From positions 845 to 64,844 of the forward strand of contig JAZDOD010000010.1 of the NCBI GenBank assembly GCA_043798995.1: a DNA stretch of 64,000 bases, given 5' to 3'. The number at the start of each line of letters is the position of its first letter. Position 1 is the stretch's first letter. A model generated the notes under the pieces. It searched no databases and had not been told where the DNA came from. It was given only the letters and a program-made list of their open reading frames with translations. Below, in pieces: positions 585 through 51,376 of the stretch. The translations under genes and the position numbers were made by a program. The stretch comes from a bacterium. GTDB taxonomy: Bacteria > Patescibacteriota > Patescibacteriia > JAACEG01 > JAGUWE01.

Positions 585-711
585 GTCATTGCGACAGCCT
601 GTCCAGAAACTGCCGAATCATACTCTACTGTCATTCCTGCGAAAGCAGGAATCCAGAAAAATAAGATAAATTTCAGATATTCTGGATTCCGCATCAAGTG
701 CGGAATGACAG
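585..711. repeat. MITE-like hairpin element, GTCAT...ATGAC family (copy E1)
   Basis: Termini are 'gtcattgcgacagcc' and 'ggaatgacag'. Internal palindromes are 'gtcattcctgcgaaagcaggaatccaga' and 'tctggattccgcatcaagtgcggaatgac'. It is related to the copies at 36113, 36668 and 49962. The ORF-track ATG at 705 lies inside this repeat. Confidence 0.7.
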
Positions 712-6923: not shown

Positions 6924-6967
6924 TTCGTCATTCTGATCCGCCAGTTGGCGGAGAAGAATCCCGAACA
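6924..6967. repeat. Short hairpin element 'ttcgtcattctga-ccgccagttggcgg-agaagaatcccgaaca' (GTCATTCTGA sub-family)
   Basis: Shares both end motifs with the B units at 7289-7331 and 7411-7452. It has a central palindrome 'ccgccagttggcgg'. Confidence 0.65.
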
Positions 6968-6972
6968 GTTTT

Positions 6973-7260
6973 ATGAAAGAGAACTTTTATGTTTACATTG
7001 CCACCAATAAACGAAATACCGTTTTTTATACTGGGATAACCAGTGATTTGGCAAAAAGAATGTGGCAACATAAACAGAAAGAGGTCAAAGGTTTTACTAG
7101 TAAATATAACATTAACAAATTAGTCTATTACGAGATATTTTCCAATCCCCAAGAGGCAATAGCAGCTGAAAAGAAAATCAAAGGTTGGACAAGAAAAAAG
7201 AAGATTGATTTAATCAAAGAGATTAATCCTGAATTTAAAGATTTGTCAGAAGAACTATAA
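6973..7260 (+). CDS. GIY-YIG nuclease family protein (UPF0213-like, 95 aa)
   Basis: 'FYVYIATNKRNTVFYTGITSDLAKRMWQHK...GFTSKYNINKLVYYE' matches the GIY-YIG catalytic module. The gene is bracketed by repeat elements on both sides. Confidence 0.8.
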   Translation: MKENFYVYIATNKRNTVFYTGITSDLAKRMWQHKQKEVKGFTSKYNINKLVYYEIFSNPQEAIAAEKKIKGWTRKKKIDLIKEINPEFKDLSEEL

Positions 7261-7495
7261 TGAGATCCTTCACTGCGTTCAGGATGACTACTTTTTTCGT
7301 CATTCTGAGCGGAGCGAAGAATCCCGAACAACATTAAAGGGGATCCTTCACTGCGTTCAGGATGACAAGAGAAGATGTTCAGGATGACAAGAGAAGATGC
7401 GTAGGATGACTACTTTTTTCGTCATTCTGAGCGGAGCGAAGAATCCCGAACAAGATCGGATGGGATCCTTCACTTCGTTCAGGATGACCACCCTC
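7261..7495. repeat. Composite array of two repeat units: A = 'gatccttcactgcgttcaggatgac' (x3), B = 'tacttttttcgtcattctgagcggagcgaagaatcccgaaca' (x2)
   Basis: Direct sequence repetition at 7264/7342/7466 (A) and 7289/7411 (B). The ORF-track ORFs 7128..7334(-) and 7357..7590(-) are translations of these repeats and are not called as genes. Confidence 0.75.
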
Positions 7496-14980: not shown

Positions 14981-14985
14981 TCCCC

Positions 14986-15180
14986 GCTCTAATTGACCTA
15001 ATTGACCTAATTGACCTAATTATTCTAAATAAATTCTCTCCCTACGGGAGATCTCTGTCCCTTCGGGACATCTCCCGAAGGGATGACCAAAGGGAGACAA
15101 ATCCCAATGACCAATAAAATTTTGGGATTTAGAAAATTGGGAATTATTTAGAGCAATTAGACTAATTAGAATAATTAGGA
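14986..15180. repeat. Inverted-repeat-bounded intergenic element: left arm is a 'taattgacc' x3 tandem, right arm is 'aattagactaattagaataattagg', with an internal cluster of short G/C hairpins (tctccc-N3-gggaga, tgtccc-ttc-gggaca)
   Basis: Read directly from the sequence between pilB and the receiver gene. Confidence 0.55.
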
Positions 15181-15198
15181 ATTCTTTATGACAAATTT

Positions 15199-15621
15199 AT
15201 GGTCAACAACAACAAAAAAACAAAAATCCTCCTGATTGAAGATGACGTTTTTTTATCTAATATTTACAGCAAAAAATTTGAAAGCGAGGGCTTTGAAATG
15301 TTGATTGCTTTGGATGGAGAAAAGGGGCTGAAACTGGCTTTAAGCAAAGAGCCGGCTTTGATTTTATTAGATCTTCTTTTGCCGGGCCTAAACGGCTTTG
15401 AAGTTTTAAAAGTTCTTAAAAAAGACGAAATGGCAAAAAAGATTCCGGTCATTCTTTTAACTAATTTAAGCCAAAAAGAAGATATTGAAAAAGGACTAGC
15501 TTTGGGAGCAGACGATTATTTGATTAAGACCCATTTTATGCCTTCGGAAATAGTGGAAAAAGTCAAGAAGTTTTTAAGCAAAACATCTTTTAAATCCGAA
15601 ATCCTAAGCACTAAACTCTAA
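15199..15621 (+). CDS. Single-domain response regulator (CheY-like receiver)
   Basis: 'KILLIEDD...LILLDLLLPGLNGFEVLKVLK...KIPVILLTN...GADDYLIK' carries the conserved receiver Asp and Lys. It sits between pilB and pilC. Confidence 0.85.
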   Translation: MVNNNKKTKILLIEDDVFLSNIYSKKFESEGFEMLIALDGEKGLKLALSKEPALILLDLLLPGLNGFEVLKVLKKDEMAKKIPVILLTNLSQKEDIEKGLALGADDYLIKTHFMPSEIVEKVKKFLSKTSFKSEILSTKL

Positions 15622-15729
15622 ACAAATTCTAAACTTTAAATCACAAATTCTAAACGGTTTGGAATTTAAAAAATTGGAATTTTGAATTTGTTTAGGATTT
15701 AGAATTTCGGATTTAGGTATTTTTTTATT

Positions 15730-18165: not shown

Positions 18166-18218
18166 TACGTTTTCGTCATTAAGGGTAATTTGTGATATAA
18201 TTTTAACAAGGGAGGATT

Positions 18219-18374
18219 AAAAATCTCCCTCAATCCCTCTTTTACAAAGAGGGAAACCGTTTTTCTCCCTTTAAAAAAGGGAGAACCAAAGAGGGATTTG
18301 TATATCTTCTCCTTTTGTCAAAAGGGAGAATTTCCGCCCAAGGCGGATCCGCCTCTGGCGGAAAAGAGGGATTT
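18219..18374. repeat. Hairpin-cluster repeat (AAATC-CCC...GGGATTT family), left direct repeat flanking the DUF559 gene
   Basis: About 110 nt of near-identity with 18739-18850. Both copies end 'tttccgcccaaggcggatccgcctctggcggaaaagagggattt'. Confidence 0.75.
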
Positions 18375-18376
18375 TT

Positions 18377-18739
18377 ATGAGACGTTACTATAAATCTCAT
18401 TTAAGAAATATTTCCAGAAAACTTAGAAGTAATATGACCGAAGCAGAAATAAAACTCTGGAATAGAATTAGAAAAAAACAAATTAACAATTTTCAATTTT
18501 ATAGACAAAAACCGTTAGGTAAATACGTGGCGGATTTCTATTGCCCGGTTAAGGAGTTGGTCATTGAAATAGACGGAGGACAACGTTACGACGAAGCCGG
18601 AGAAATCACAAGGGAAGATAAAGAAAAAGAAAATTATCTTAAAAATATTTTAAAATTAAAAGTAATAAGATTCACTAATATTGAGATAACGAAGAATTTA
18701 GACGGTGTGGTAAATAGTTTAATAGAAGAATTAAAGTAA
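18377..18739 (+). CDS. DUF559 endonuclease-domain protein (Vsr-like fold)
   Basis: 'EAEIKLWNRIRKKQINNFQFYRQKPLGKYVADFYCPVKELVIEIDGGQRY...LKVIRFTNIEI' matches the DUF559 signature (W..LR, FrRQ, DFyc, LvIEiDG, lRf.N). Confidence 0.8.
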   Translation: MRRYYKSHLRNISRKLRSNMTEAEIKLWNRIRKKQINNFQFYRQKPLGKYVADFYCPVKELVIEIDGGQRYDEAGEITREDKEKENYLKNILKLKVIRFTNIEITKNLDGVVNSLIEELK

Positions 18740-18850
18740 AAATCTCCCTCAGTCCCTCTTTTACAAAGAGGGAAGTCACTTCTCTCCCTTTAGAAAAGGG
18801 AGAGTTTCCGCCCAAGGCGGATCCGCCTCTGGCGGAAAAGAGGGATTTGC
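18739..18850. repeat. Right direct repeat flanking the DUF559 gene
   Basis: See 18219-18374. It is a shorter copy that lacks about 45 nt from the middle of the left copy. Confidence 0.75.
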
Positions 18851-32234: not shown

Positions 32235-32280
32235 ATTCATAAATTCCAAATCCCAAGCACCAAATAACAAATAAATTTCA

Positions 32281-32646
32281 ATGACCGAAATTTCAAATTC
32301 CAAACCATACAATTTAGAAGAAAGAACTTTTCAATTTGCTAAAAAAGTAGCACTCTTTTGTAAAAAATTACCAAGAACTGTAAGTAACCTTGAATACGTT
32401 AAACAAGTAATTAGATCATCGGGCTCAACCGGCGCTAATTATATTGAAGCAAATGAGTCATTTAGTAAAAAAGATTTTAGATTAAGGATTAAAATTTGTC
32501 GCAAAGAAGCAAAAGAATCAGTTTATTGGCTGAGATTAATTATTGAAACCAACGACAAGAAATTTGAAAAAGAAGGGAAAGAGCTTTTAGAAGAAGCGAT
32601 GGAACTCAAAAAGATTTTTTCCGCAATTATTGAAAAATCAAAATAA
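32281..32646 (+). CDS. Four-helix-bundle protein (IVS-protein family), copy 3
   Basis: 'SSGSTGANYIEANESFSKKDFRLRIKICRKEAKESVYWLRLI'. Flanked by inverted 'aaatttcaaattccaaa / tttggaatttgaa' word repeats. Confidence 0.7.
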   Translation: MTEISNSKPYNLEERTFQFAKKVALFCKKLPRTVSNLEYVKQVIRSSGSTGANYIEANESFSKKDFRLRIKICRKEAKESVYWLRLIIETNDKKFEKEGKELLEEAMELKKIFSAIIEKSK

Positions 32647-32662
32647 TTTTTGTATTTGATAA

Positions 32663-33460
32663 TTGGAATTTGAATATTATTTGGAATTTGTAATTTGTAA
32701 TTTGGAATTTATGTTCGTTTGTATTTTGAGACATTTTAAAAGATATCCAGAGAGAGGCAATGTTCTCCTTTCCACCATCCTTATTATGGGCATAACGCTT
32801 AACATTGGGCTGGTGATAGCAACCTTAGCTTTAAGTGGTTTTAGTAGGGCGCGGAATATCAAATTGCAATCCTTGTCTTATTATGGGGCCGAAAGCGGCG
32901 TTGAATATAGTTTATTTAAAGTTAGGAAAGGTGGCAGTGAAATTGGTAATTTGAATATTAACGCCGCTACTGAATCTGGCGTCAGCTGGGAGAGCGCGGG
33001 TAAAATTTTTTCATTAGAAATTTTTGAGGATTTAGAAGAAGATAAATCAATCATTCTTTATCTTTATAATCCAGACACTTGGACCAGCGGCATCAATCGA
33101 TTGTTAATTAAGTGGAATGATACTTGTTATGGTAGTTCAGTTTTAGAAATTAAATATTATGAAATTAATGAGCAGACCGATTTAAACAATCTTAATTGGA
33201 CAGGAAAGATTACCAGAGAATGGATACAAGAAGAAACAACGCCACCTGGCACCATTGAAGATCTTTTTTTAAATTCCAACAATGCCTATGCCATGAAAAT
33301 TACAGTAAAAAATTGTTATGTTAATGTTTTAAACATTAACCCCCAAGTGTATAATTATACTACGGGTCAGTATGAAGAAACAAATATTAATATTGAAAAT
33401 GTTATTACCTCTACCGGTGCTTCGGGCGATGTCAAACAGACGATCAGGGTATCGATGTGA
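32663..33460 (+). CDS. Hypothetical membrane-anchored protein with a PilX-N-like hydrophobic N-terminus (probable start at 32711)
   Basis: 'ERGNVLLSTILIMGITLNIGLVIATLALSGFSRARN...YYGAESGVEY' resembles the PilX N-terminal domain. The remainder is Asn-rich with no recognizable domain. Confidence 0.4.
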   Translation: MEFEYYLEFVICNLEFMFVCILRHFKRYPERGNVLLSTILIMGITLNIGLVIATLALSGFSRARNIKLQSLSYYGAESGVEYSLFKVRKGGSEIGNLNINAATESGVSWESAGKIFSLEIFEDLEEDKSIILYLYNPDTWTSGINRLLIKWNDTCYGSSVLEIKYYEINEQTDLNNLNWTGKITREWIQEETTPPGTIEDLFLNSNNAYAMKITVKNCYVNVLNINPQVYNYTTGQYEETNINIENVITSTGASGDVKQTIRVSM

Positions 33461-33577
33461 AATTTTTAATTTTTAATTTTTAATTTTCAATTAAACCGGT
33501 ACTTTGAAATGGCCGGTTTTTGTGATACAATAACAACAAATCCAAAATCCAAAACTCTAAATACTAAACAAATTCTA

Positions 33578-33946
33578 ATGATTCAAATTCCAAATTCCAA
33601 ACGAAATAATAAATATGATTTAGAGGAAAGAAGTCTTAAGTTTGCTAAAAGAGTTAACGATTATGTTAATAAATTGCCTAAAACTATTCCTAACATTGAA
33701 AACGGTAAGCAATTAGTTCGCGCAGCCGGTTCAACCGGTGCTAATTATATCGAAGCTAATGAATCTTTGGGCAAAAAAGATTTTCAAATGAGAATCAAAA
33801 TTTCTAAAAAAGAAGCCAAGGAAAGTGGATTTTGGTTAGAACTATCCCAACCTTTAAAAGAAAATGAAAAAGAAAAACAAGATTTAATTCAAGAAAGCAT
33901 AGAACTTATGAAAATTTTTGGTTCTATTTTAGAAAAGTCAAAATGA
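33578..33946 (+). CDS. Four-helix-bundle protein (IVS-protein family), copy 4
   Basis: 'AAGSTGANYIEANESLGKKDFQMRIKISKKEAKESGFWLEL'. The ORF-track start at 33509 lies inside the left inverted repeat; the Met at 33578 gives a length like copies 1-3. Confidence 0.7.
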   Translation: MIQIPNSKRNNKYDLEERSLKFAKRVNDYVNKLPKTIPNIENGKQLVRAAGSTGANYIEANESLGKKDFQMRIKISKKEAKESGFWLELSQPLKENEKEKQDLIQESIELMKIFGSILEKSK

Positions 33947-34016
33947 AGAGTTTGTGATTTGAAATTTATGATTTAGATATTGTTTAGGATTTAGGATTTC
34001 GAATTTAGAATTTTAA

Positions 34017-36056
<2,040 letters not shown>

Positions 36057-36112
36057 TTACCAATTTTCAATCAATTTACAATGATTCAATTTTCAGTTAC
36101 CAGTTTTTTCTC

Positions 36113-36262
36113 CTGTCATTCCCGTCCCTGCTTCCGCAGGGGTAAACTTGTCCCCGCGAAAGCGGGGAGCGGGAATCCAGAACTCAGAAAGTTTATCCCT
36201 GGATCCCGCATCTCAGCCCGAGGCTGATCCGCCTTTGGCTGGAAAGTGCGGGATGACAAAAC
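36113..36262. repeat. MITE-like hairpin element (GTCAT...ATGAC family), copy E4
   Basis: 'tgtcattcccgtccctgcttccgcaggg...ggaaagtgcgggatgacaaaa'. Its reverse complement occurs at 36668-36822. Confidence 0.75.
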
Positions 36263-36304
36263 ATATTGTTTGAAAATCTCTAAATTTAAAACTTTAAAAA
36301 TATT

Positions 36305-36613
36305 ATGCCTACTACTAAAAAAATTTCAATTCAAGAAATTAAGCATTTGGCCGATTTGGCCAGATTAAAAGTGAGCGAAAGCGAGGTCAAAAAATACGCC
36401 TCGGATCTTTCGGCAATTTTAGATTATGTTGCCGAGTTAAAAGGAATAGACACTCAGAAAATTTCTCCGACTGCCCAGGTGGTGGAAACAGAAAATGTTT
36501 TTAAAAATGATTTGGTTGATTTGGATTATACTGCCAAAACTAAAGAAAAAATAATTAAAAATTCGCCCGAAAGTCAGGATAATTTATTTAAGGTTAAAAA
36601 GGTGTTTGAGTAA
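36305..36613 (+). CDS. gatC: Asp-tRNA(Asn)/Glu-tRNA(Gln) amidotransferase subunit C
   Basis: 'ISIQEIKHLADLARLKVSESEVKKYASDLSAILDYVAEL' and length about 100 aa, located upstream of gatA. Confidence 0.85.
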   Translation: MPTTKKISIQEIKHLADLARLKVSESEVKKYASDLSAILDYVAELKGIDTQKISPTAQVVETENVFKNDLVDLDYTAKTKEKIIKNSPESQDNLFKVKKVFE

Positions 36614-36667
36614 ATTTACAATTTCCAATTATCAATTCACAATAAATTTTTAAATGGCCCAATTTTC

Positions 36668-36822
36668 AATTGTCATCCCGCACTTTCCAGCCAAAGGCGG
36701 ATCAGCCTCGGGCTGAGATGCGGGATCCAGAATGAAAATAGAATAATTGCTGGATTCCTGCTCCCCGCTTTCGCGGGGACAAGTTTACCCCTGCGGAAGC
36801 AGGGACGGGAATGACAAAATAC
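36668..36822. repeat. MITE-like hairpin element, copy E5 (inverted relative to E4)
   Basis: Near-perfect reverse complement of 36113-36262. Confidence 0.75.
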
Positions 36823-36843
36823 TTGAAAATTGAAAATCAAATT

Positions 36844-38283
36844 ATGTTAAACGAATTAACCATCACCCAAGCCCATCAAGGTTTGATAAAAAAAGAATTT
36901 TCTTGCCAGGAGCTGACCAGGGCTTGTTTAGGGCAAATTAAGAAAGTTGATCAGAAAATCAAAGCTTTTTTGACCTTGACTCAAGATTCGGCGCTAAAAG
37001 AAGCCAAAAAGATTGACCAGAAAATAAAAAATAAAGAAGAAATTACTATTCTTTCGGGCATTCCGGTGGCTATTAAGGATAATATTAATATAGAAGGAGT
37101 TAAAACTACCGCCGGCTCGCAAATTTTAAAAAATTTTATTGCCCCGTATGATGCTACGGTAATTGAAAAATTAAAGTCAATCGGAGCTATTTTTTTGGGC
37201 AAAACCAATCTTGATGAGTTTGCCATGGGTTCAAGCACTGAAAATTCTAGCTACCAAAAGACGGCCAACCCCTGCGATTTAAAGCGCGTGCCGGGCGGTT
37301 CTTCCGGTGGCTCGGCTGCGGCTGTCGTCGCTCACCAGTGTATTTACGCCTTGGGTTCTGACACCGGCGGTTCAATCCGCCAGCCAGCCAGTTTTTGCGG
37401 CCTGGTGGGGCTCAAACCAACTTATGGCCGCGTTTCTCGTTATGGCCTTTTGGCCATGGCTTCTTCTTTGGATCAAATCGGGTCCTTAACCAAAACCGTT
37501 GAAGACGCCGCTTTAGTTTTAGAAACAATTGCCGGCCAAGACGCGCGGGACGCAACCAGTTTGCCTAAGGACGTTCCTTCTTATTCACAGCAGTTAAAAA
37601 AAGACATTAAGGGTCTTAAAGTCGGCTTGCCCAAAGAATATTTTGCCCAAGGTCTAAATAGAGAAATTAAAAAAATAATTGAGAAAGCGGTTAAACAAGT
37701 AGAAGATTTGGGCGCTCAAGTTAGAGAAGTGGAATTGCCCTATACCAAGGCGGCTTTGCCGGTTTATTATTTACTTATGCCCGCCGAGGTCTCCTCTAAT
37801 TTAGCCCGTTACGACGGCATAAAATATGGTCTTTCGGATAAAAAAGCCAAAGATTTATTATCGGTTTATTTAAACTCAAGACAACTTGGTTTTGGCCAGG
37901 AAGCAAAGCGGCGGATTATACTCGGCGCTTATATTCTTTCGGCCGGTTATTATGACGCTTATTATTTAAAGGCGCAAAAAGTAAGAACTCTTATTAAATG
38001 GGATTTTGACAAAGTTTTTAACGAGGTTGATGTTTTAATCACCCCGACCTCGCCAACAGTCGCTTTTAAAATCGGCGAGAAAATAAATGATCCTTTGAAG
38101 ATGTATCTTTCCGACATTTATACCGTTTCAGTTAATTTGGCTGGACTGCCGGCCATCTCCATTCCGGTCGGTTTTAGTCAGGGGTTGCCCGTTGGACTGC
38201 AAATCATTGGCCGCCAGTTGGATGAGGCCACGATTTTAAGAGTAGCGTATTGGTGTGAACAGAAGACAGGTCGGCATAATTAG
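36844..38283 (+). CDS. gatA: Glu-tRNA(Gln)/Asp-tRNA(Asn) amidotransferase subunit A (amidase signature family)
   Basis: Amidase signature '[13 protein letters not shown]' and the Ser-cisSer-Lys triad context. The start is placed at the ATG at 36844 because the ORF-track ATG at 36811 is part of the E5 terminus 'ggaatgacaaaa'. Confidence 0.9.
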
Positions 38284-43028: not shown

Positions 43029-43146
43029 GTCATTGCCACGCCCACCCCTTTCCGAGTAAAGGGGTGGGCGTGGCAATCTCTTTCTTCATTAAAAATAATA
43101 AGATTGCTTCGTCGTCCGCCAGCTGGCGGACTCCTCGCAATGACAG
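43029..43146. repeat. MITE-like hairpin element (GTCAT...ATGAC family), copy E6
   Basis: 'tgtcattgccacgcccacccctttccgagtaaaggggtgggcgtggcaatc ... cgtcgtccgccagctggcggactcctcgcaatgacag'. Confidence 0.7.
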
Positions 43147-43846: not shown

Positions 43847-45001
43847 ATGACCAATCAAGAATTAATCAATAAATTAAAAGTTATCAAAAAAATTCAGCCG
43901 GATGAGACTTGGCTTAAATTAAATCGGGAAAGATTATTGGCTCAAATCGCCAATCAGAAAACTGCTTCCTCGTCTCATCAAGGTTTGGCTGAAGTTTTTT
44001 ATTTTGGCCGGCTTTTCAAACAATTAAGCAAAAATTTTGTTTTACAGCCCGTCGGCACTTTTGTTTTAATGCTGGCTATAGTTTTAGGCGGCGGAGTGGC
44101 TAAGGTTCAAGCTGATGCCAGTTTGCCGGGCGATTTTCTTTATGCTTTTAAACAGGGCGGCCAGCAGTTTCGGATGATGCTGGCCAGACGCGATGATCAA
44201 CGGCTCAAACTGCAGTTGGAATTTACCGACCGCCACTTAGATGAGTTAACCCAAATTGCCGAGCAAAGTAATTTTGCTACCTCCGAAAGAGAAGAACGCC
44301 TGCGAGAAGCGCTTAATATTTTTCAGGCCGATTTAGCTTATTTAAATAATAATTTGCAATCAATAAATTCTCAGACCGATGTTTCCGGAGCAGTGGCAGC
44401 GGCTCAGAAAGTTGATGAGAAAACCAATCTTTATCAATTGGTCTTAAAACAAACCGAACGAAAAATGGCTACTGGTAAAATTCAAACAGAGGTTCGGAAG
44501 ACAATTAAAGCCGTTGATGAAACCGAAACCAAGGCCTTAACTATGATTGTCAGCAAACATCAGCAAGGCCAAAGCCAAATTTCTTCCCAGGAAGTGGCAA
44601 TGAGAATTGAAAGCAAAATCAAACAAGCCACCGATAATTTAGATGAATTAGGCAAAACTTTAACAACAACTTCAGTTGACGGTAAAATAAATGAAGCAAA
44701 AACCAATTCTCAAAAAGTGCAAGATATGTTAGAGCAAGCCAGACAGGACTTGGCTAATCAGGAATTTGTCATTGCTTTGGAAAAAATTAAAACCTCGCAG
44801 GAAATTTTTAATGAGGCCAAGGATTCTGTTGCCGAAACAACCGAAACAGCCACTTCAACCTCAACCGAAACTAATGTTAATGCCGGTTTAATCAGAGAAA
44901 ATTCAATCAATATTTTAACTCCAACCAGTTCTGAAAAAGGTTTTGGCAGCGCTCCGGCTGATCCTGAAATGCCGGCTCAGACACCACAGACGCTTAAATA
45001 A
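43847..45001 (+). CDS. DUF5667-like membrane protein, putative anti-sigma factor partner of the ECF sigma
   Basis: It is located immediately downstream of the sigma gene with a 5-bp gap. It has one TM 'VGTFVLMLAIVLGGGVA' and a long coiled-coil extracytoplasmic region. Confidence 0.5.
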   Translation: MTNQELINKLKVIKKIQPDETWLKLNRERLLAQIANQKTASSSHQGLAEVFYFGRLFKQLSKNFVLQPVGTFVLMLAIVLGGGVAKVQADASLPGDFLYAFKQGGQQFRMMLARRDDQRLKLQLEFTDRHLDELTQIAEQSNFATSEREERLREALNIFQADLAYLNNNLQSINSQTDVSGAVAAAQKVDEKTNLYQLVLKQTERKMATGKIQTEVRKTIKAVDETETKALTMIVSKHQQGQSQISSQEVAMRIESKIKQATDNLDELGKTLTTTSVDGKINEAKTNSQKVQDMLEQARQDLANQEFVIALEKIKTSQEIFNEAKDSVAETTETATSTSTETNVNAGLIRENSINILTPTSSEKGFGSAPADPEMPAQTPQTLK

Positions 45002-45042
45002 AATCCTAAATCCTAAATCCTAAATCCTAAATCCTAAATCCT
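45001..45042. repeat. Tandem heptamer (aaatcct) x6
   Basis: Perfect tandem repeat starting on the stop codon of the preceding gene. Confidence 0.9.
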
Positions 45043-45186
45043 ATTTATTTTTATGTTTATAAACCATTGTAAGTTAAAGGTCGGGCCCTTTAAAAGGCGC
45101 TTGCAATTAAAATTTAATTAACCTTCTAAGTTTGGGCAGAAGTCGAAAATTGCCTTGAACTTAGAAAAAAGGAGAAAAAATTAATT

Positions 45187-49961: not shown

Positions 49962-50121
49962 ATCATTGCGATAGCCTGTCCAAAAACTGTCATTCCGCAC
50001 TTGATGCGGAATCCAGAATATCTGAAATTTATCTTATTTTTCTGGATTCCTGCTCCCCGCTTTCGCGGGGACAACCCCGTATTTAATACGGGGCCTGCGG
50101 AAGCAGGGGCAGGAATGACAA
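49962..50121. repeat. MITE-like hairpin element (GTCAT...ATGAC family), copy E7
   Basis: 'tcattgcgatagcctgtccaaaaactgtcattccgcacttgatgcggaatccagaa...ttctggattcctgctccccgctttcgcggggacaa...gcaggggcaggaatgacaag'. It shares modules with E1 and E4. Confidence 0.75.
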
Positions 50122-50128
50122 GAAGTAT

Positions 50129-51376
50129 TTATTTAGAATAAAGTTTAATAGTTTTACTTAACATTTTTTCAAAACCAAATTCTTTTTCAAATTTTTCTTT
50201 CGCCTTTTGGCCAAAATTTTTCGCTAAGTCAGGATTTTCCAGCATCTGGCTTATTTTTTCTGCCAAAATTTCACTTTCTCTTGGCTGAACTAAAAAGCCG
50301 GATACCCCGTCTTCAATCATTTCCGAGATGCCCCCGACTCGGGTAGCGACAATCGGCAGCTCGGCTGCCATAGCTTCTAAAATAGTGTAAGGCAAGCCTT
50401 CCTTGACCGATGATAAAACAAAAATATCAAAGGCCTTAAGATATCTGTAGGCGTCAGCGATTTTTACTAACTTAAAATTATCTTGTAAATTTAGTTGGTT
50501 AATTTTTTTATTCAGAAATTCTCTTTGTTGACCTTCGCCAATCAAAACAAAAAGAATATCAGGAAATTTTTTTCTCACCAAATCAGCTGCTTTAATTAAA
50601 TAATTAAGTCCCTTGGTCGGATAAAAATTAGCGATCGTGCCAATGATTTTGAATTTTGAATTATGAATTATGAATTTAGAATTAATCATGTTTAGTAATT
50701 TCTCTCTGGCCTCGTTTCTTTCTAAAAATTTTAAAGTATTAACATCGATGCCGTTATGAATAGTAATTAATTTTTCCTCGGAAAAATTATTCTTTACGGC
50801 AACTTGCCGGTCAAATTCCGAAACGCAGATAATCTTGTCTTTAAAGAAAGCGGTAAATTTTTCCGCCCAAAAATAAAAAGTTTTCTGCCAGTGCGATAAA
50901 GGTTCGTTAAAAACCCAGCCATGAACGGTATAAAGCACATAACATTTAACATGAAACATGAAACAAATTTTAGCCGCTACAGAGCCGAGAATGGAAACTT
51001 TTGAACTATTAAGGTGGATAATGTCTGGTTTTTCTTTTTTGATTAATCTAACGATTTCTATTAACCCCCAAAAATCAGTCAAAGGGTTAATGGCTCTAAC
51101 CAGATTTTTAAGATAAATTGTTTTAATGCCTTTTTGGGCGAGTTTCTTAAATAATTCACCATTTTCATCTTCGCCGGCAGCCACCACTGCTTCAAAAAAA
51201 ATGTCATTGCGAGGACCCCGCGTAGCGGGGGATGTGGCAATCCCATTCAAAACTGAAAGAGATCCCTCGCCCTGTTTTGGCAGGACTCGGGATGACAGAG
51301 CGGTTGCCAAATCAAAAACATATTTCTGCGCTCCGCCCCACTCGGACTGGGTTATGATATATAATATTTTTTTCAT
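50129..51376 (-). CDS. Glycosyltransferase family 4 (GT-B), carrying an in-frame 32-codon repeat-element insertion near its N-terminus
   Basis: 'MKKILYIITQSEWGGAQKYVFDLATAL...' is the typical GT4 N-terminus, and the 'E...GGISEMIEDGVSGFL' motif lies near the C-terminus. Residues 27-60 are encoded by repeat copy E8. Confidence 0.8.
   Translation of the reverse strand: MKKILYIITQSEWGGAQKYVFDLATALSSRVLPKQGEGSLSVLNGIATSPATRGPRNDIFFEAVVAAGEDENGELFKKLAQKGIKTIYLKNLVRAINPLTDFWGLIEIVRLIKKEKPDIIHLNSSKVSILGSVAAKICFMFHVKCYVLYTVHGWVFNEPLSHWQKTFYFWAEKFTAFFKDKIICVSEFDRQVAVKNNFSEEKLITIHNGIDVNTLKFLERNEAREKLLNMINSKFIIHNSKFKIIGTIANFYPTKGLNYLIKAADLVRKKFPDILFVLIGEGQQREFLNKKINQLNLQDNFKLVKIADAYRYLKAFDIFVLSSVKEGLPYTILEAMAAELPIVATRVGGISEMIEDGVSGFLVQPRESEILAEKISQMLENPDLAKNFGQKAKEKFEKEFGFEKMLSKTIKLYSK
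51203..51298. repeat. MITE-like hairpin element, copy E8; 96 bp, inside the GT4 coding sequence
   Basis: 'gtcattgcgaggaccccgcgtagcgggggatgtggcaatc...cctgttttggcaggactcgggatgacag'. Its termini are the same as the intergenic copies, and its length is a multiple of 3. Confidence 0.7.

Follow-up and report, generated by a model that had tools for sequence, protein, structure and literature searches.

Two inverted NTS-like hairpin doublets around gatC in a Patescibacteria-type genome, probably ordinary repeat insertions

Among the closest described systems to the elements reported here are the NTS, dRS3 and SRM repeats (Chenal et al. 2025, PMC11893778). The NTS of Neisseria contains the dRS3 repeat; SsnA, a GIY-YIG nuclease of 94 aa, binds and cuts it in the form of single-stranded DNA (ssDNA), acting on only one of the two strands (PMC11893778). 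Ssn genes are typically bordered by their own motif, and in N. meningitidis an NTS-gene-NTS configuration reduces transformation (PMC11893778). The elements under study, E4 and E5, lie in a stretch of 64,000 nucleotides from a patescibacterial assembly (GCA_043798995.1, contig JAZDOD010000010.1, positions 845 to 64,844), which is called the window below and has a GC content of 39.5%. They stand in opposite orientation on either side of gatC. E4 and E5 are probably two copies of a gene-less, NTS-like hairpin doublet, each placed in the centre of an AT-rich palindrome. The bracket around gatC would then be the result of ordinary repeat insertion, and not a device that serves gatC.

The initial annotation had described E4 and E5 as inverted copies of each other that enclose only gatC, and both statements hold up. 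One pair of arms (36114-36180 and 36750-36816) is 67 nt long with 66/67 matches (99%), and the other (36199-36259 and 36670-36730) is 61 nt long with 61/61 matches (100%). A repeat search and a global alignment agree on these figures. The inverted match is real and beyond chance. The sole difference between the arms, a G versus an A, affects the left unit's outer stem. There is no relation between the two copies in the central 18-19 nt, which are AACTCAGAAAGTTTATCC in E4 (36181-36198) and AATGAAAATAGAATAATTG in E5 (36731-36749). The positions of the open reading frames (ORFs) place gatC and no other gene between the copies. The spacers that hold them measure 248 bp between ligA and gatC, and 230 bp between gatC and gatA.

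Each copy is made of two inward-facing units, where a unit consists of GTCAT, a stem, an enlarged loop, the other half of the stem and ATCC. A short AT-rich loop connects the two units, and extra small hairpins are nested within the unit loops. For example, the left unit of E4 reads TGTCATTCCCG (CCCTGC-TTCC-GCAGGG) GTAAACTT (GTCCCCGC-GAAA-GCGGGGA) GCGGGAATCCAGAA. After the loop, the right unit continues as CCTGGATCCCGCA (TCAGCC-CGA-GGCTGA)(TCCGCC-TTTG-GCTGGA) AAGTGCGGGATGACAA. The ends of the element are TGTCATTCCCG... and ...CGGGATGACAA. These outermost ends point outward, as GTCAT...ATGAC, and the topology is that of a nuclease cassette elsewhere in the window (6926-7288), described below.

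At 146 bp, E4 and E5 are non-coding; the ORF list has only chance ORFs of 41-55 aa there. The pattern GTCATTCCYG-N30-60-CRGGAATCYRG matches both, with 0 matches expected. Both copies fold far better than shuffled sequences do. E4 folds on itself at -43.9 kcal/mol as DNA (z -7.6) and at -80 kcal/mol as RNA (z -7.7). For the two copies together, the DNA self-folds are at -38 to -44 kcal/mol (z -5.5 to -7.6) and the RNA self-folds at -80 and -78 kcal/mol (z about -7.7), and element fold z-scores overall range from -5.5 to -7.8. Neither copy is an intrinsic terminator: a terminator scan finds no T-run after either.

Across the window, the arms of such doublets are near-constant while the central loops are hypervariable. 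The arms of E4 and E5 agree at 127/128 positions and their loops cannot be aligned. The gene-less copies at 7299 and 7421 differ at roughly 6/11 loop positions (7325-7340 vs 7447-7462) and at one arm position. E1 and E6, unlike E4 and E5, have a common central loop.

The likeness to NTS is clearest in E1, a minimal doublet near the start of the window (Table 1). With up to 3 mismatches allowed, its left unit TGTCATTCCTGCGAAAGCAGGAATCCAG (629-656) is the only place in the window that matches the NTS consensus of Neisseria, CGTCATTCCCGCGMAVGCGGGAATCYRG, where 0 matches are expected. It agrees at 25/28 positions, and two of the three differences form a compensatory pair. The consensus was taken from PMC11893778, which tolerates 1 mismatch; at that setting the window holds no match, E1 having 3. 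E4 and E5 keep the NTS flanks GTCATTCCCG...CGGGAATCCAG exactly, and have a 46-nt insert in place of the loop. Together with E6, with which they have modules in common, they show exact NTS flanks around inserts of 46-58 nt. The directional arrangement of GTCAT, imperfect palindrome and ATC(C) is found in all four units of E4 and E5, in E1 and E6, and at 7299-7488, 43029-43144 and 51203-51296.

The comparison with NTS/dRS3/SRM (Chenal et al. 2025, PMC11893778) thus yields a GTCAT 5' flank, an imperfect palindrome, an ATCC(AG) 3' flank and directionality in common. The intergenic position and the repeat-gene-repeat configuration are also alike, and the window has a 95-aa GIY-YIG gene that is bracketed by such units. 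There are differences too. The loops of the E4 and E5 units are 46-48 nt long with nested hairpins, versus 3-5 nt in NTS/SRM, and the units are arranged as fixed inverted doublets whose loop is short and AT-rich. The host differs too, being of the Patescibacteria type, a group that the main text of PMC11893778 does not mention. Going by their sequence, the E4 and E5 units resemble NTS/SRM and are probably related to them. Rfam, applied to the whole window at gathering thresholds, returns 0 families.

Several unit types also occur joined together. E1 is nested in another GTCAT-type element, TCATTGCGACAGCCTGTCC ... GACAGGCTGGCGGCAAT (586-790), and E6 abuts a copy of the left arm of that outer element (49965-49990). 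This gives BIME-like mosaics.

The place where the copies sit can be read from a relative, L003, which has only AT-rich sequence in both gatC spacers. When E4 is taken out of the upstream spacer, what is left is identical to the AT-rich palindrome between gatC and gatA of L003 at 76/102 positions. The downstream spacer without E5 is identical to it at 68/84. In this alignment the insertion points of E4 and E5 are at the centre of the AT-rich palindrome. The order is therefore AT-rich arm, E4, AT-rich arm, gatC, AT-rich arm, inverted E5, AT-rich arm, in which the AT-rich elements are direct copies.

This also settles what the matching outer words are, which the initial annotation had seen as part of the inverted bracket. 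The words exist: CAATTTTCAAT is found at 36061 and 36660, and ATTTACAAT at 36074 and 36614. They are direct and not mirror-symmetric, as all four are on the + strand, 5' of each element. They are alike because both sets belong to direct copies of the AT-rich palindromic spacer element.

A GC-rich core within AT-rich arms is not special to gatC. The same layout is found in other spacers of the window, for example at 14981-15198, and GC-rich hairpin cores are present in about 13/26 of the intergenic gaps of more than 60 bp. Each of two paralogous 23S_rRNA_IVP (four-helix-bundle) genes, at 32281-32646 and 33509-33946 (region 32238-34013), is also flanked by AT-rich inverted repeats of words such as AAATCCAAAATCC. 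Similar words are found at 15592-15727 and 44995-45048.

Table 1 Coordinates of the gatC locus and of related elements in the window
Feature	Position	Strand	Remarks
ligA (NAD-dependent DNA ligase)	34023-36056	+	677-aa ORF; gene upstream of the bracket
Upstream AT-rich palindromic spacer element, left arm	36057-36113	+	carries CAATTTTCAAT and ATTTACAAT
E4	36114-36259	+	gene-less doublet of two inverted GTCAT hairpin units
E4, left unit	36115-36180	+	
E4, loop	36181-36198	+	variable, AT-rich
E4, right unit	36199-36257	+	
Upstream AT-rich spacer element, right arm	36260-36304	+	from alignment to the downstream spacer of L003
gatC	36305-36613	+	intact, 102 aa; Pfam GatC PF02686, E 2.3e-17
Second, direct AT-rich spacer copy, left arm	36614-36669	+	ends in CAATTTTCAAT, abutting E5
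E5	36670-36817	-	E4 doublet in opposite orientation
E5, right unit	36672-36730	-	
E5, loop	36731-36749	-	unrelated to the loop of E4
E5, left unit	36750-36815	-	
Downstream AT-rich spacer element, right arm	36818-36843	+	TTGAAAATTG, complementary to CAATTTTCAA; from sequence and alignment
gatA	36844-38283	+	inferred start 36844 (MLNELTI...); the ORF itself opens at ATG 36811
E1	629-711	+	minimal doublet: TGTCATTCCTGCGAAAGCAGGAATCCAGAA, 21-nt loop, then TTCTGGATTCCGCATCAAGTGCGGAATGACAG
Candidate autonomous cassette	6926-7288	+	GTCAT unit 6926-6966, GIY-YIG gene 6973-7260, inverted unit 7262-7288
Gene-less copy of the cassette ends	7299-7366	+	left arm, 16-nt loop, right arm
Gene-less copy of the cassette ends	7421-7488	+	left arm, 16-nt loop, right arm
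E6	49987-50122	-	E1 with three small hairpins replacing the GAAA loop of the left unit

The relatives carry much of the argument. GatC homologues with DNA context were compared, at GatC identities of 69-92%. Exact copies of the GatC protein of the window, and of protein P0001, are not on record. In L002 (gatC 90.6% and ligA 93.5% identical in nucleotides) the genes are compact, with 2 nt between ligA and gatC and 3 nt between gatC and gatA (TAATATG). In L215 (gatC 94%) the contig begins ...TAATGAC, 11 nt before the ATG, and this edge is probably an assembly break in a GTCAT element; downstream is a 144-bp AT-rich spacer with no GC-rich core. L001 (gatC 89.8%) has a GTCATCCTGAAC-type doublet upstream, in a spacer that is otherwise homologous to that of L003, and an unrelated GTCATTGCGAGG-type unit downstream. 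These two L001 elements are unrelated and unable to pair with each other. Further away, L003 and L004 (GatC 70% identical in amino acids) have spacers that are AT-rich only. L216 (GatC 69%) has a single GATTCTGAA...ATGAC unit downstream, and ligA was not identified in the 78 nt available upstream. The ligA orthologue of L003 has the Pfam domain DNA_ligase_aden as well as OB and BRCT domains.

Each relative that was compared differs in what occupies the flanks of gatC. At orthologous sites there is presence/absence polymorphism: L002, L003 and L215 are without the element, and L001 and L216 have other GTCAT elements. The gatC-flank sites have therefore been struck more than once and in separate events, and the pair E4/E5 belongs to the lineage of the window alone. 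The order of genes does not follow the elements. With or without them, gatC is between ligA and gatA in L002 and in L003/L004, and directly upstream of gatA in L001, L215 and L216. The initial annotation had treated the arrangement as a possible device, and had allowed that it would be no more than two independent insertions if close relatives lacked the elements with no effect on operon expression. The comparison of spacings bears out the absence, as the elements are missing at the same sites in close relatives.

Identity switches across the gatC spacers in some of these genomes. L002 is 93.5% identical in ligA, 90.6% in gatC and 83.2% in gatA; L001 is 89.8% identical in gatC and 94.7% in gatA. 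Judging by these sequences, the switches suggest recombination breakpoints at or near the gatC spacers.

The modules of E4 and E5 are not confined to this genome. A scan of a genome collection finds the 21-mer GTCCCCGCGAAAGCGGGGAGC at no fewer than 119 loci (at least that many) in many phyla, and 35 of these loci, as well as both window copies, have it in the nested E4-type context. L011 (2467-2532), a groundwater metagenome-assembled genome (MAG) labelled Nitrospinota, has the 66-nt left unit of E4 at 98.5% identity. The identity of this unit is 94-95% in Desulfobacterales and Pirellulales MAGs (L019, L028, L043); L019 also carries the exact right unit of E1/E6. Such near-identity between phyla may indicate either cross-phylum spread or strong constraint, and for single contigs mis-binning is possible. 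What bears on this caveat is that several Planctomycetota genomes have many copies each. Viral contigs gave a single match, and nothing in this points to a viral vector.

An alignment of 21 left units from several phyla fits a three-helix structure in which 98.9% of cells are paired, versus 42-52% in slid controls. At four pairs there are changes on both sides, for example ATTCCCG/CGGGAAT, ATTCCTG/CAGGAAT and ACCCCTG/CAGGGGT. The covariation score is reached by 0/500 shuffles. Helix 3 is invariant in this alignment because it was the search pattern. As far as can be told from these alignments, the hairpin structure of the left unit is maintained in evolution.

The right half has a life of its own. 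Its inner module, TCAGCCCGAGGCTGA with TCCGCC..GGCGGA, occurs by itself, as a double hairpin, in 91 metagenome loci. The E4 context is found in 0/91 of them, and some are chance matches in Pro/Glu-rich coding repeats. A protein search with the spurious 55-aa ORF across E5 gave two weak matches, in which the left unit has other partners. The free-standing double hairpin CTCAGCCCGAGGCTGATCCGCC..GGCGGA is beside a tRNA gene in 7/7 loci analysed with ARAGORN (L154, L159, L192, L139, L131, L206 and L212). Behind it, three of these loci (L154, L159 and L192) repeat about 20 nt of the tRNA end, a pattern that resembles an insertion with partial duplication of the tRNA.

The window also contains an Ssn-like gene. 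The ORF at 6973-7260, located by phmmer seeded with the protein of L091, codes for a 95-aa protein that is a GIY-YIG domain alone (PF01541, E 1.3e-18). Its nearest solved relatives are UPF0213 proteins, and its top homologues are from Moranbacteria, Parcubacteria and Patescibacteria MAGs. Along with the GC content of 39.5%, these homologues put the window in the Candidate Phyla Radiation. The left arm of the cassette is CGTCATTCTGA(TCCGCCAGTTGGCGGA)GAAGAATCCCGAAC (6926-6966) and the right arm is GAGATCCTTCACTGCGTTCAGGATGAC (7262-7288). GTCAT units also bracket the homologues in L217 (a 96%-identical relative), in L218-L225 (a 78%-identical protein on >20 contigs), in the Planctomycetes-labelled locus L091, and in L128. 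The arms of L128 match the canonical NTS at 27/28 positions, and its protein is 44% identical to that of the window over the full length (E 9e-31).

Taken with the two gene-less copies that follow it, the cassette (6926-7488) looks like an autonomous/non-autonomous pair. A TCCGCC-AGTT-GGCGGA hairpin is nested in the loop of its left arm, where L217 has a plain loop. A second pairing of a small nuclease with repeats is present in the window: a DUF559 gene (Vsr-like endonuclease fold, 18377-18739) is bracketed by direct copies of a hairpin mosaic, at 18218-18374 and 18737-18848. The inner double hairpin of that mosaic, TCCGCCCAAGGCGGA with TCCGCCTCTGGCGGA, resembles the right inner module of E4.

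On the reading preferred here, the doublets E1, E4 and E5 would be the ends of a nuclease cassette minus the gene, which would make them non-autonomous, MITE-like derivatives (MITE, miniature inverted-repeat transposable element). The units would act as ssDNA hairpins that are recognised by an Ssn-type nuclease, and would spread by way of such a nuclease or by recombination. New copies and hairpins would tend to land in exposed hairpin loops, and nesting and mosaics would result. That E4 and E5 face opposite ways may be the coin-flip of two insertions, or come from a local copy event. An RNA duplex of E4 with E5, or ssDNA cutting around gatC, would be a by-product and not a selected device specific to gatC.

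Known classes of repeats fit this picture in part. Like MITEs such as the Correia elements of Neisseria, E4 and E5 are small and non-coding, have terminal inverted repeats (TTGTCAT(T)CCCG) and are polymorphic in presence, and for a sister family the window also contains a form that shares its ends and carries a gene. Unlike MITEs, they have no target-site duplication that could be found, only two full copies were seen, and the gene in the putative autonomous form is a GIY-YIG nuclease and not a known transposase. REP, BIME and REPIN elements, which go with RAYT (IS200/IS605-like) genes, are similar in that, between genes, they form inverted hairpin doublets and mosaic clusters. They are also tied to a single-copy nuclease-type gene that is flanked by the same units, and presumably act as ssDNA hairpins. 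Membership of the REP/REPIN class calls for a GTAG 5' tetranucleotide and a flanked RAYT; the window units start with GTCAT, and the gene they flank is GIY-YIG and not a Y1/HUH transposase. The literature on MITEs in the Candidate Phyla Radiation, or on GIY-YIG genes with REP, yielded nothing relevant.

A number of observations count against this account. The published SRM pattern HGTCWYN(0-2)YYVSBRHN(0-5)WNVSBRGN(0-2)RNCYNB has 0 matches in the window, versus 0.05 in shuffles, and because of this strict membership of NTS/SRM is not claimed; the failures trace to one compensatory stem pair, AT-richer stems or enlarged loops. The arms of the window cassette (GTCATTCT...AGAATCC) are of another sequence type than the E4 and E5 units, and for that reason recognition of E4 and E5 by the window nuclease is not established. 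A gene-bearing counterpart with the same ends is there for the sister family only (6926-7288 vs 7299-7366 and 7421-7488), gene-bearing NTS-type ends are in L128 only, which is another organism, and no gene-bearing element with the ends of E4 and E5 was found. No third full-length copy of E4/E5 turned up in the window, in the 91 metagenome loci of the right inner module or among predicted proteins. E4 and E5 resemble each other more than either resembles anything else, as a local copy event would predict more readily than two draws from a large family. The near-complete identity of their arms beside unalignable loops lacks an explanation. There is no evident target-site duplication and no direct repeat common to the four junctions, although in flanks this AT-rich and low in complexity a target duplication of 2-3 nt would be undetectable. 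Finally, the mechanism by which Ssn cassettes might move is undemonstrated, the authors of the 2025 study only raising a resemblance to insertion sequences (PMC11893778).

An RNA function was the initial proposal: in a ligA-gatC-gatA transcript E4 would pair with E5 and loop out gatC, as an RNase III site or as an insulator of translation. Transcribed Correia elements form hairpins that are cut by RNase III, which is what had been envisaged for E4 and E5. The capacity to pair is borne out by RNAcofold, at -292.7 kcal/mol versus -158.9 for the two self-folds, so that the duplex is strongly favoured at equilibrium. The minimum free energy structure of 36040-36860 uses the long-range duplex (-380.3 vs -243.2 kcal/mol with pairs limited to 200 nt), and on the + strand there is no terminator-like site between ligA, gatC and gatA. 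The single stem of more than 140 bp gives way to two potential helices of 67 and 61 bp that flank an internal loop. Against a selected role stands the lack of conservation: L002 is compact, L003 and L215 have no GC-rich cores, and the elements of L001 are unrelated. Each copy would also fold on itself during transcription, at about -80 kcal/mol, in competition with the long-range duplex. Many other window spacers have one element of this kind by itself. A role in RNA would also require both strands of one family to function there, although as DNA the units have a direction. A motif scan, the only search made for it, saw no RNase III gene in the window. As relatives of 90-94% nucleotide identity do not have the pairing, the role as RNase III substrate or insulator is unsupported as a selected function, and it is distinctly unlikely. 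The duplex may possibly have an incidental effect on the transcripts of this strain; whether it forms in vivo depends on kinetics, with self-folding coming first, and on ribosome traffic.

It has some appeal to see the bracket as a barrier to recombination or transformation, in which an Ssn-type nuclease cuts either entering strand on both sides of gatC and so reduces allele replacement. Each doublet has one unit per strand, so whichever strand enters would be cut, and homology would be shortened. The units are NTS-like, an Ssn-like gene is present in the window, NTS-gene-NTS lowers transformation in N. meningitidis (PMC11893778), and the identity shifts in L002 and L001 suggest that the spacers are recombination junctions. 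However, there is no sign of natural transformability in the lineage, or of cutting of E4 and E5 by its nuclease. Occupancy varies between close relatives, and with about half of the larger spacers bearing such elements, gatC is not singled out. A barrier is therefore unlikely. A broader version, in which a GIY-YIG Ssn cassette copies itself and gene-less versions of itself into hairpin loops, and E4-gatC-E5 is a two-strand barrier that shields gatC, must be called quite unlikely. If true, a self-copying cassette would explain the nesting of hairpins in loops, the insertion at the centres of AT-rich palindromes, and the near-identical units in MAGs labelled as different phyla.

Two further readings make gatC the thing that moves. 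Recombination between the 146-bp inverted copies could flip gatC, as an on/off or dosage switch, and ongoing gene conversion could yield arms that are near-identical next to diverged loops. Flipping an essential gene out of operon orientation should harm the cell, and no sequence of the flipped form was found, which leaves an invertible segment very improbable. The initial annotation had also raised a composite-transposon-like unit with gatC as cargo. The outward GTCAT...ATGAC ends, as in the nuclease cassette, are compatible with it. It is contradicted by the synteny of gatC in relatives regardless of the elements, the order ligA-gatC-gatA being the same wherever ligA is visible, and no second gatC or duplicated target was seen. 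This idea is rejected as extremely improbable. A composite transposon proper has two transposase-coding insertion sequences around foreign cargo; here the 146-bp copies encode nothing and gatC is syntenic.

Elements of this kind can mislead annotation. The true start of gatA is most likely 36844, since relatives begin MLNELT or MKLNELT; the ATG at 36811, where the gatA ORF opens, falls within E5. Similarly, a 2072-aa ORF opens at 705 inside E1, and the minus-strand ORF 50129-51376 runs across the element at 51203-51296. False N-terminal extensions at 36811, 705 and 51376 would probably result from automatic annotation.

Repeat insertions can thus place conspicuous inverted copies on both sides of an essential gene, and such an arrangement need not mean regulation. 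The bracket itself is of little significance, and the pairing of nuclease and repeats around it is the more useful finding. It extends the combination of Ssn nucleases with hairpin repeats to Patescibacteria-type genomes. The units of E1, E4 and the copy at 7299 are concrete substrates on which the enzyme could be tested. Gene-bearing and gene-less forms side by side are what would be expected if these cassettes are or were mobile, which the 2025 paper raised but did not show (PMC11893778).

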